28,457 nt of DNA from a virus. Lineage: Duplodnaviria; Heunggongvirae; Uroviricota; Caudoviricetes. The DNA is taken from positions 1-28,457 of the IMG/VR virus record IMGVR_UViG_2698536484_000010. One strand, 5' to 3'. Position 1 is the stretch's first letter; each line of letters opens with the position of its first letter. This document shows, one piece after another, positions 23,905-24,914 of this stretch. Made by a program: the position numbers and the translations under genes. The notes beneath the pieces are model-generated. The model worked only from the letters and a program-made list of their open reading frames with translations, was not told where the DNA came from and did no database searches.

Positions 23905-23964
23905 AACCGTAGCACGTCGTATGCAAGAAGATCGTGCTGCGGTTTATGCTTATCACTTAAAGAC

Positions 23965-24738
23965 TCAAAAATTAGGTGAGTAACGGACCGGGGACATAGC
24001 TCCTTTTTTTCTTAATTCATCTGGTATTTTTTTTCCAAGATAAAGATTTGCTATTTCAGGTGGGGCTTCTCGACCTTCAAAACCATAGCGAGAACTTTGT
24101 GTTGCCTCAAAGTCCGGATCCTCGTCCCAGTATTTCATCGTAGGGAAATTTTCACGTGTTGATTTGAGCCATTTATCAGCAATGAAAACCCCTCGAACGA
24201 TCCCCCTTACAGTAGCAAGAATGACTTCTGCTTGGCTGGCGCGAGAGACATTAATGCGCCAGCTAAATCGAACCGCATCATAAAACTCTGAATCCTTTGC
24301 ACTTCTGTTAACGGAAATCATTAATGCTTTATGATGAAATGTTATGGTTTCGGGTTGATATGTTGCTATCAACTCTTTGACATGCGCGGCGCCGAATTCA
24401 TTGCTGCCAGCACCATTCATGATATTCGTTAACCCAGGGTAGGCATCAATAAGTGCTGCTTCGACTTCGTACGCCGTCTTTTCATCAGTCATTCCGTGTC
24501 GATGGATGACATGGATAACCTCAAGTCCTGCTAACCTTATTTCTCTAATTTGCTTTAGCTTGTTGCTCAGTAACTCGTCATCATCAGTCGCTGCCACTTC
24601 ACCGCGCATATGGGCAAATACGCGGTTACCTTTGCCTTTCCCTACATAGAAGGTGCTTCCGTCCCTCGGATCAATCAATCGGTATACATACCAGCCAAGG
24701 TGTTCAATTACTCCAGAAGGAAACTCAGTAATATCCAT
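23965..24738 (-). CDS. GIY-YIG nuclease-domain protein with uncharacterised C-terminal domain (cargo gene)
   Basis: N-terminal [29 protein letters not shown] matches the GIY...YIG...R motif; AT-rich; opposite strand to the tail module; start taken as ATG 24738 (the ORF-track start at 24789 is TTG). Confidence 0.6.
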
Positions 24739-24914
24739 TTTGCAATATCTATGAATTATTTGTGAGACGTATATTAATGAACATTGCAAGGGCTCACAAC
24801 CAGTAGTGTTGAGAAAACCATCGGGGAAATGAGGCTAAGTCTTTGAATTTACATAGTACAAAAAAGATACTTTTCCTCATAATGTGAATTAATTTTATGT
24901 TTCGTTTGATGATT

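Follow-up and report, generated by a model that had tools for sequence, protein, structure and literature searches.

A near-identical copy of the type IV restriction enzyme CMoRE (PD-T4-3) beside the att core of a temperate phage

By its sequence, the single gene that lies between the Pin invertase gene and the att core of this temperate phage is a near-identical copy of CMoRE, or PD-T4-3, a type IV restriction endonuclease that works on its own (Liu et al. 2026, PMC12923530). Our reading, to which we give a probability of about 0.95, is that the gene is carried as cargo and would defend its host against T-even phages by cleaving their modified DNA. The mechanism has been established for enzymes that are 98% and 85% identical to the product of this gene, and we infer it for the copy in the window (the whole 28,457-nucleotide stretch of DNA analysed here). 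The system itself is not new, as CMoRE has already been named, assayed and structurally solved for an essentially identical protein. What we add is modest: an upgrade of the annotation, and a prophage slot common to CMoRE and McrA. A protein that RefSeq labels 'LEM-3-like GIY-YIG domain-containing protein', and that falls in a PHROGs family of unknown function, can be named CMoRE/PD-T4-3, a type IV enzyme specific for 5hmC and 5ghmC.

Sequence identity and domain layout

The CMoRE coding sequence occupies positions 23965 to 24738 on the minus strand (257 amino acids plus a stop codon), opposite to the plus-strand tail module as the sequence-only reading had placed it, and was defined by the open reading frame listing and by its match to the PADLOC PD-T4-3 model. 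The frame opens with an ATG and begins MDITEF; an in-frame TTG at 24789, upstream of this start, would yield 274 residues (17 more) if used. The 257-residue form is that of both the RefSeq protein and the crystallised construct, equals the length of the type I CMoRE members, and carries no extra domains.

Searches with this protein agree on its identity. The PD-T4-3 model (PDLC04031), its sole PADLOC match, aligns over positions 1 to 256 of 256 (E 6.9e-140), and the corresponding PHROGs family is phrog_5356 (E 6.8e-143). A phmmer search of PDB sequences recovered, both end to end, 9U75/9U8D (E 1.2e-171) and 9U7U/9U7Z (E 3.6e-150), which are the CMoRE enzymes of E. coli O157:H7 and APEC O1, respectively (Liu et al., Nat Commun 2026, PMC12923530). 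Identity to the O157:H7 enzyme (9U75) is 98.1% (252/257), the differences being T51A, E55D, F152L, Q169K and N197H (window residue, position, PDB residue), so that within residues 1 to 127 positions 51 and 55 alone differ; identity to the APEC O1 enzyme (9U7U) is 84.8% (218/257). A single residue, L152F, separates the window protein from the common RefSeq allele WP_000355484.1. F152 is private to the window, absent from all 5,426 complete E. coli genomes, where the best match has 99.9% nucleotide identity. Among the phages of the collection searched, the gene had no counterpart at the nucleotide level, and the phage protein search returned only homologues of at most 45% identity.

The N-terminal GIYxY-YIG nuclease domain covers approximately residues 1 to 110 (24409 to 24738, minus strand). 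Its motif, which had been recognised by eye, is found as W16-Y17-V18-Y19-R20-L21, F30-Y31-V32-G33-K34-G35 and R39. Pfam recognised residues 28 to 110 alone, as PF22945 (LEM-3-like GIY-YIG, 2.2e-14), with the generic model PF01541 below threshold, and NCBIfam gave no match for the protein. Within this domain the acidic run D52-D53-D54-E55 (24574 to 24585, minus strand) belongs to the autoinhibitory lid loop, a role known from the mutant with four alanines (PMC12923530). The run reads DDDE here and in the enzyme of APEC O1, against DDDD in that of O157:H7. The C-terminal 5hmC/5ghmC-sensing domain spans approximately residues 120 to 257, including Y127 (23968 to 24381, minus strand), and its role comes from 5hm-dCTP co-crystals (PMC12923530). 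No Pfam model covers the C-terminal 150 or so residues, in line with the unrecognised domain described from the sequence, and when residues 128 to 257 are compared with the PDB the matches are CMoRE chains only (E 3.2e-83).

The residues on which the published enzymes depend are present. Y17, Y19, Y31, R80, V92, L96 and Y127 are all kept in the window protein. We aligned it with the two crystallised CMoREs and four phage homologues of 31-45% identity (from Serratia phage Moabite, Pseudomonas phage OBP, Klebsiella phage N1M2 and Escherichia phage PhiR41_1), and across these seven sequences, down to 31% identity, Y17, Y19, Y31, G33, K34, G35, R39, E93 and N105 are invariant. The spacing pattern of GIY-YIG enzymes suggests that R39 and E93 are the catalytic arginine and glutamate, whose residue numbers are not given in the text of PMC12923530; a catalytic pair is thus probably present, as expected of a functional nuclease of this fold. 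Column 152 is variable among the homologues (F/L/T/P/W).

The biology of the family is well documented. PD-T4-3 was recovered from E. coli ECOR68 by functional selection as a single GIY-YIG gene that protects against T4 (Vassallo et al. 2022, PMC9519451; PMC12923530), and its deletion in the clinical isolate NILS69 sensitised that strain to Tevenvirinae, with one T-even phage escaping the native level of PD-T4-3 (10.1101/2024.12.20.629700). A Capnocytophaga homologue of 48% identity cut modified T4 DNA and not T4-GT7 DNA (Rodriguez-Rodriguez et al. 2025, PMC12366544). Mu DNA was cleaved as well when the enzyme dose was high, and induction of the homologue gave defence against Mu (PMC12366544). 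From its native promoter, E. coli CMoRE restricts T2, T4 and T6 about 10^5-fold, by direct defence and not by abortive infection; the O157:H7 allele is strong from its native promoter and the APEC O1 allele is weakly active from its own (PMC12923530). The nuclease depends on Mg2+ or Mn2+ and cuts 5hmC and 5ghmC DNA, not C or 5mC DNA, requiring two modified cytosines and cleaving at CN11/N9G with little sequence specificity to leave 2-nt 3' overhangs (PMC12923530). Arabinosylated DNA supports weak activity, and resistance to the arabinosyl-hmC phages Bas46 and Bas47 is very mild (PMC12923530). Function needs a tetramer, a dimer of dimers, and the V92S/L96S mutant loses both oligomerisation and defence; every mutation of the GIYxY-YIG tyrosines Y17, Y19 and Y31 impaired defence (PMC12923530). 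Changing the four acidic residues of the 15-residue lid to alanine raised activity, led to cleavage of ordinary DNA and caused toxicity (PMC12923530). The C-terminal domain senses the modified base and the N-terminal domain cuts; for the former, neither sequence nor structure comparison gave a homologue (PMC12923530). The suggestion, made from the sequence, of a solitary defence or modification-dependent nuclease describes what this family has been shown to be (PMC9519451, PMC12366544, PMC12923530), and probably holds for the window protein, which is 98% identical to an assayed enzyme.

The slot between pin and the att core

The gene lies where it had been placed from the sequence, between pin and an att core. 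On its left, the PinE-like serine DNA invertase gene pin (23350 to 23904, plus strand, with an alternative start at 23314) is 92.5% identical in nucleotides to e14 pinE, carries the label pinE in related genomes, and is convergent with CMoRE. On the right is the att core (24915 to 24980, plus strand), the 3' part of a tRNA-Ser(CGA) gene including CCA, which matches annotated tRNA-Ser genes in several phage records. Across the core follows a tyrosine integrase gene (25033 to 26058, minus strand), with 98% identity to its counterpart in phage vB_EcoM-606R7, itself a neighbour of tRNA-Ser-CGA. Homology to the integrase-side junction of vB_EcoM-606R7 starts at 24915, and that phage carries the complete annotated tRNA-Ser-CGA; homology to lysogen right ends stops at 24996. 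ARAGORN called no complete tRNA at the core. The partial tRNA and the breaks in homology together indicate that the window is in the attP form, as the sequence-only reading had it. The neighbours of CMoRE are pin, the integrase and a DUF4224/Xis-like gene, and no methyltransferase adjoins it in the window, as had also been noted, or in related loci. Beyond the Xis-like gene we observed a 706-residue open reading frame (26320 to 28440, minus strand) whose counterparts are labelled exonuclease or exodeoxyribonuclease VIII, one of 823 residues in the E. coli genome NZ_CP148378.1 and one split into two frames in vB_EcoM-606R7.

The AT-rich surroundings noted in the sequence-only reading stand in one respect and fall in another: the gene has 43.8% GC against 54.2% in the structural module (1 to 21500), yet the integrase/early DNA on its right has 46.1%, likewise a low value, and low GC is therefore not specific to CMoRE. 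The 176 nt upstream of the start (24739 to 24914, minus strand) match the upstream region of the O157:H7 allele nearly base for base and presumably hold the native promoter. In the 60-nt gap between the convergent stop codons, a hairpin at 23904 to 23946 has a fold energy of -22.5 kcal/mol (z -3.47) on the plus strand and -16.7 kcal/mol (z -1.89) on the minus strand, and may act as a bidirectional terminator for both genes. Scans for consensus terminators called nothing, this hairpin included, and a sigma-70 consensus scan of the minus strand returned no promoter match for CMoRE.

The arrangement is widespread in E. coli. At 95% nucleotide identity or more, the CMoRE gene is present in 838 of 5,426 complete genomes, mostly in this slot; pin is joined directly to CMoRE in 570, and in 815 CMoRE continues through its upstream region into the att fragment. 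The crystallised O157:H7 gene also lies next to pinE in this slot, within a prophage that is degraded. A contiguous attP-type order of pin, CMoRE, tRNA fragment and integrase was found in 2 of the 5,426 genomes, NZ_CP148378.1 (L001, 12001 to 15000), where the integrase is frameshifted, and NZ_CP182220.1; in the other genomes homology breaks off at the att core, the pattern that an ordinary lysogen should give. In strain 357900 (L002, 7439 to 8264) and in O157:H7 TW14359 (L085, 7774 to 8597), the pinE-CMoRE end with its tRNA-Ser-like fragment adjoins an AraC-family regulator gene, and pao genes lie near this end in 357900. A site beside an AraC-family gene, and not at serU beside mtfA as in vB_EcoM-606R7, indicates that the cargo end is found at more than one chromosomal location.

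The tail-fibre region to the left deserves description of its own. An invertible segment (21431 to 23288) is bounded by 20-nt pix-like sites, AAACCTTGGTTTGGGAGAAG at 21431 to 21450 and an inverted partner at 23269 to 23288 with one mismatch. The stretch 21431 to 22784 is inverted relative to strain 357900, which is consistent with an active Pin switch. Positions 19064 to 20687 (1,624 nt) are exactly 20689 to 21450 followed by the reverse complement of 22407 to 23268, a tandem partial copy in which the 3' end of ymfQ, the constant part of the tail fibre gene and the crossover site run on into half of the invertible segment, in flipped orientation. The exact flipped copy means that both states of the switch are recorded side by side at 100% identity. 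It is either an assembly artefact of a population of mixed orientation or a very recent duplication.

In K-12 the e14 prophage has the order pinE, mcrA, attR (icdC), which bears out the statement in the sequence-only reading that the HNH enzyme McrA sits beside pinE. Over pin the window and e14 are 92.5% identical, and their homology breaks off at 23905, the first base past the pin stop codon. Two unrelated type IV enzymes, McrA and CMoRE, thus share one position in related prophages: the slot holds McrA (HNH) in e14, and CMoRE (GIY-YIG) both in the window and in roughly 10-15% of E. coli genomes. It is tempting to ask more of this position. In e14-family prophages, the short stretch from the pin stop codon to the att core might be a recurrent exchange point for modification-dependent nucleases that lack a methyltransferase, a proposal that we hold tentatively and consider somewhat more likely to be wrong than right. 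If true, e14-family temperate phages would systematically arm their hosts against hypermodified T-even phages. We surveyed the slot in 80 Pin-anchored loci, one genome per species. CMoRE adjoined pin in none of the 80, and McrA did so in three e14 copies only. The other first downstream frames encode P2-type tail sheath/gpU proteins, UmuD-like proteins, two DNA methyltransferases, one reverse transcriptase and, where the prophage simply ends, chromosomal genes. The two-member case of McrA and CMoRE is supported; an enrichment of the slot for type IV enzymes beyond these two is not established. The reverse transcriptase of the survey (Pfam RVT_1) appears, from its translation, to be the first frame after the Pin homologue in Salmonella enterica CP191473.1 (L036, 5204 to 6133), and if correctly placed it may be a retron-type defence gene at an equivalent position.

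Proposed function and other readings

From the published enzymes we can outline how the window copy would work. The temperate phage, or its prophage, would carry CMoRE as cargo between the Pin tail-fibre switch and the tRNA-Ser att site. The enzyme would assemble as a tetramer, a dimer of dimers, in which the C-terminal domain of each dimer would bind a pair of 5-hydroxymethyl- or glucosyl-hydroxymethyl-cytosines separated by about 21 bp. Cutting between the modified cytosines would then fall to the N-terminal GIYxY-YIG domains, at CN11/N9G, leaving 2-nt 3' overhangs in the presence of Mg2+ or Mn2+. The acidic lid, DDDE in this copy, would shield the active site, confining cleavage to modified DNA that is tightly bound and leaving the host's own DNA intact. 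As the targeted modification is missing from the host, the system would need no methyltransferase. Within a lysogen, CMoRE would protect the host, and hence the prophage, from T-even phages by degrading the incoming DNA rather than by abortive infection.

It is possible to read the gene in other ways. The window copy might be silent or inactive, either because L152F is damaging or because the gene is not expressed from the prophage. Neither crystallised protein nor the common RefSeq allele has F152, no promoter for CMoRE came out of the consensus scan, and the APEC O1 allele is weakly active from its native promoter (PMC12923530). Yet position 152 is variable, with L, T, P or W in homologues, and replacing L by F is a conservative change; the reading frame is intact with every invariant residue kept, and the upstream region is almost base for base that of the strongly active O157:H7 allele. 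Since frame, invariant residues and upstream region are all conserved, we regard an inactive allele as very unlikely. A different question is whether in nature the enzyme has a wider range of targets than T-even hmC DNA, or other targets altogether, so that it would be a general sensor of hypermodification that also meets the carbamoylmethyl-adenine of Mu or the DNA of arabinosyl-hmC phages. The cleavage of Mu DNA at high dose and the induced defence against Mu by the 48%-identical Capnocytophaga homologue (PMC12366544), together with the very mild resistance to Bas46 and Bas47 (PMC12923530), speak for such a range. The Mu result, however, comes from a distant homologue at high dose, and the E. 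coli enzymes have undetectable activity on unmodified and 5mC DNA and weak activity on arabinosylated DNA (PMC12923530). We therefore think a broader or different natural target unlikely, and retain modified-cytosine DNA of T-even phages as the probable target of the window enzyme.

The sequence-only reading had also allowed for a homing-endonuclease remnant, that is, a GIY-YIG gene that spreads itself rather than defends its host. There is a weak match to phrog_314, labelled 'homing endonuclease' (E 0.0028), and depositors labelled the homologues in jumbo phages 'putative homing nuclease', labels that appear to be based on the domain and not on tested functions. What the protein matches strongly is PD-T4-3 (E 6.9e-140), along with the crystallised CMoRE enzymes, and these are known to recognise a modified cytosine, with little regard to sequence, rather than a homing site (PMC12923530). 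The gene is moreover free-standing between pin and att, outside any intron, intein or host gene, and its position is fixed across hundreds of E. coli genomes. With a target that is a base modification and a locus that offers no homing context, there is next to no likelihood left for this reading, and a defence nuclease carried as cargo is the one we keep.

Several other identities were tried and set aside. An I-TevI-type homing endonuclease would bring a NUMOD or IENR1-type domain, which Pfam did not find, and an intron or homing context, which the locus does not have. For a repair enzyme of the UvrC or Slx1 kind, no other solved GIY-YIG protein was matched at E <= 10, and no further UvrC domains are present. 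A type II restriction-modification system was rejected for want of an adjacent methyltransferase. An McrA-type HNH enzyme was rejected as well, the window protein having no HNH match in Pfam; e14 McrA matches PADLOC mREase_IV and Pfam HNH.

Comparison with known systems

The closest structural neighbour reported for the CMoRE nuclease domain is the N-terminal GIY-YIG domain of UvrC (PDB 1YCZ), with the catalytic arginine and glutamate conserved (PMC12923530). CMoRE differs from UvrC in its extra tyrosine (GIYxY), its 15-residue acidic insertion, the absence of the other UvrC domains and its different biological role. No sequence match between UvrC and the window protein was detectable. The restriction enzymes of the PvuRts1I/AbaSI family have folds unrelated to that of CMoRE, combining a PD-(D/E)XK-type nuclease with an SRA-like domain, and no member was matched when the window protein was searched against PDB sequences. 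Like CMoRE, they cut DNA with 5hmC or 5ghmC and not C, at a fixed distance from two modified cytosines, leaving 2-nt 3' overhangs (in part from PMC12923530).

Full-length homologues of CMoRE (31-45% identity) occur in lytic jumbo phages, namely the Serratia Moabite group, Pseudomonas OBP and Klebsiella N1M2, and one more is found in the approximately 108-kb Escherichia phage PhiR41_1 (the four loci being L086:1501-2262, L087:1492-2250, L088:1498-2241 and L089:1456-2220, with most products labelled 'homing nuclease' or hypothetical). They keep the catalytic residues and are without the four-residue acidic lid. It is possible that these lid-less homologues are used against competing hypermodified phages, or that they are regulated differently.

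The CMoRE enzymes of O157:H7 and APEC O1 resemble the window protein in length, two-domain layout, motif, acidic lid, interface residues and Y127, and each is a single gene without a methyltransferase. The O157:H7 gene differs in its setting, a degraded prophage remnant, whereas the window has the attP form and its integrase is intact; the CMoRE paper (PMC12923530) nowhere uses the word 'prophage'.

McrA (EcoKMcrA) of e14 offers the nearest parallel in position. Like the CMoRE of the window, it is a modification-dependent type IV enzyme without a methyltransferase, encoded directly after pinE and close to att. Unlike CMoRE it has the HNH fold (PF01844), shares no sequence similarity with the window protein, and lies on the same strand as pinE, whereas the CMoRE gene is convergent with pin; the att of e14 is in icd and that of the window in tRNA-Ser. 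The specificities differ too, McrA acting on 5mC or 5hmC in particular contexts. The CMoRE described here is a further case of a defence gene at the att-proximal end of a temperate phage, in the position that McrA holds in e14.
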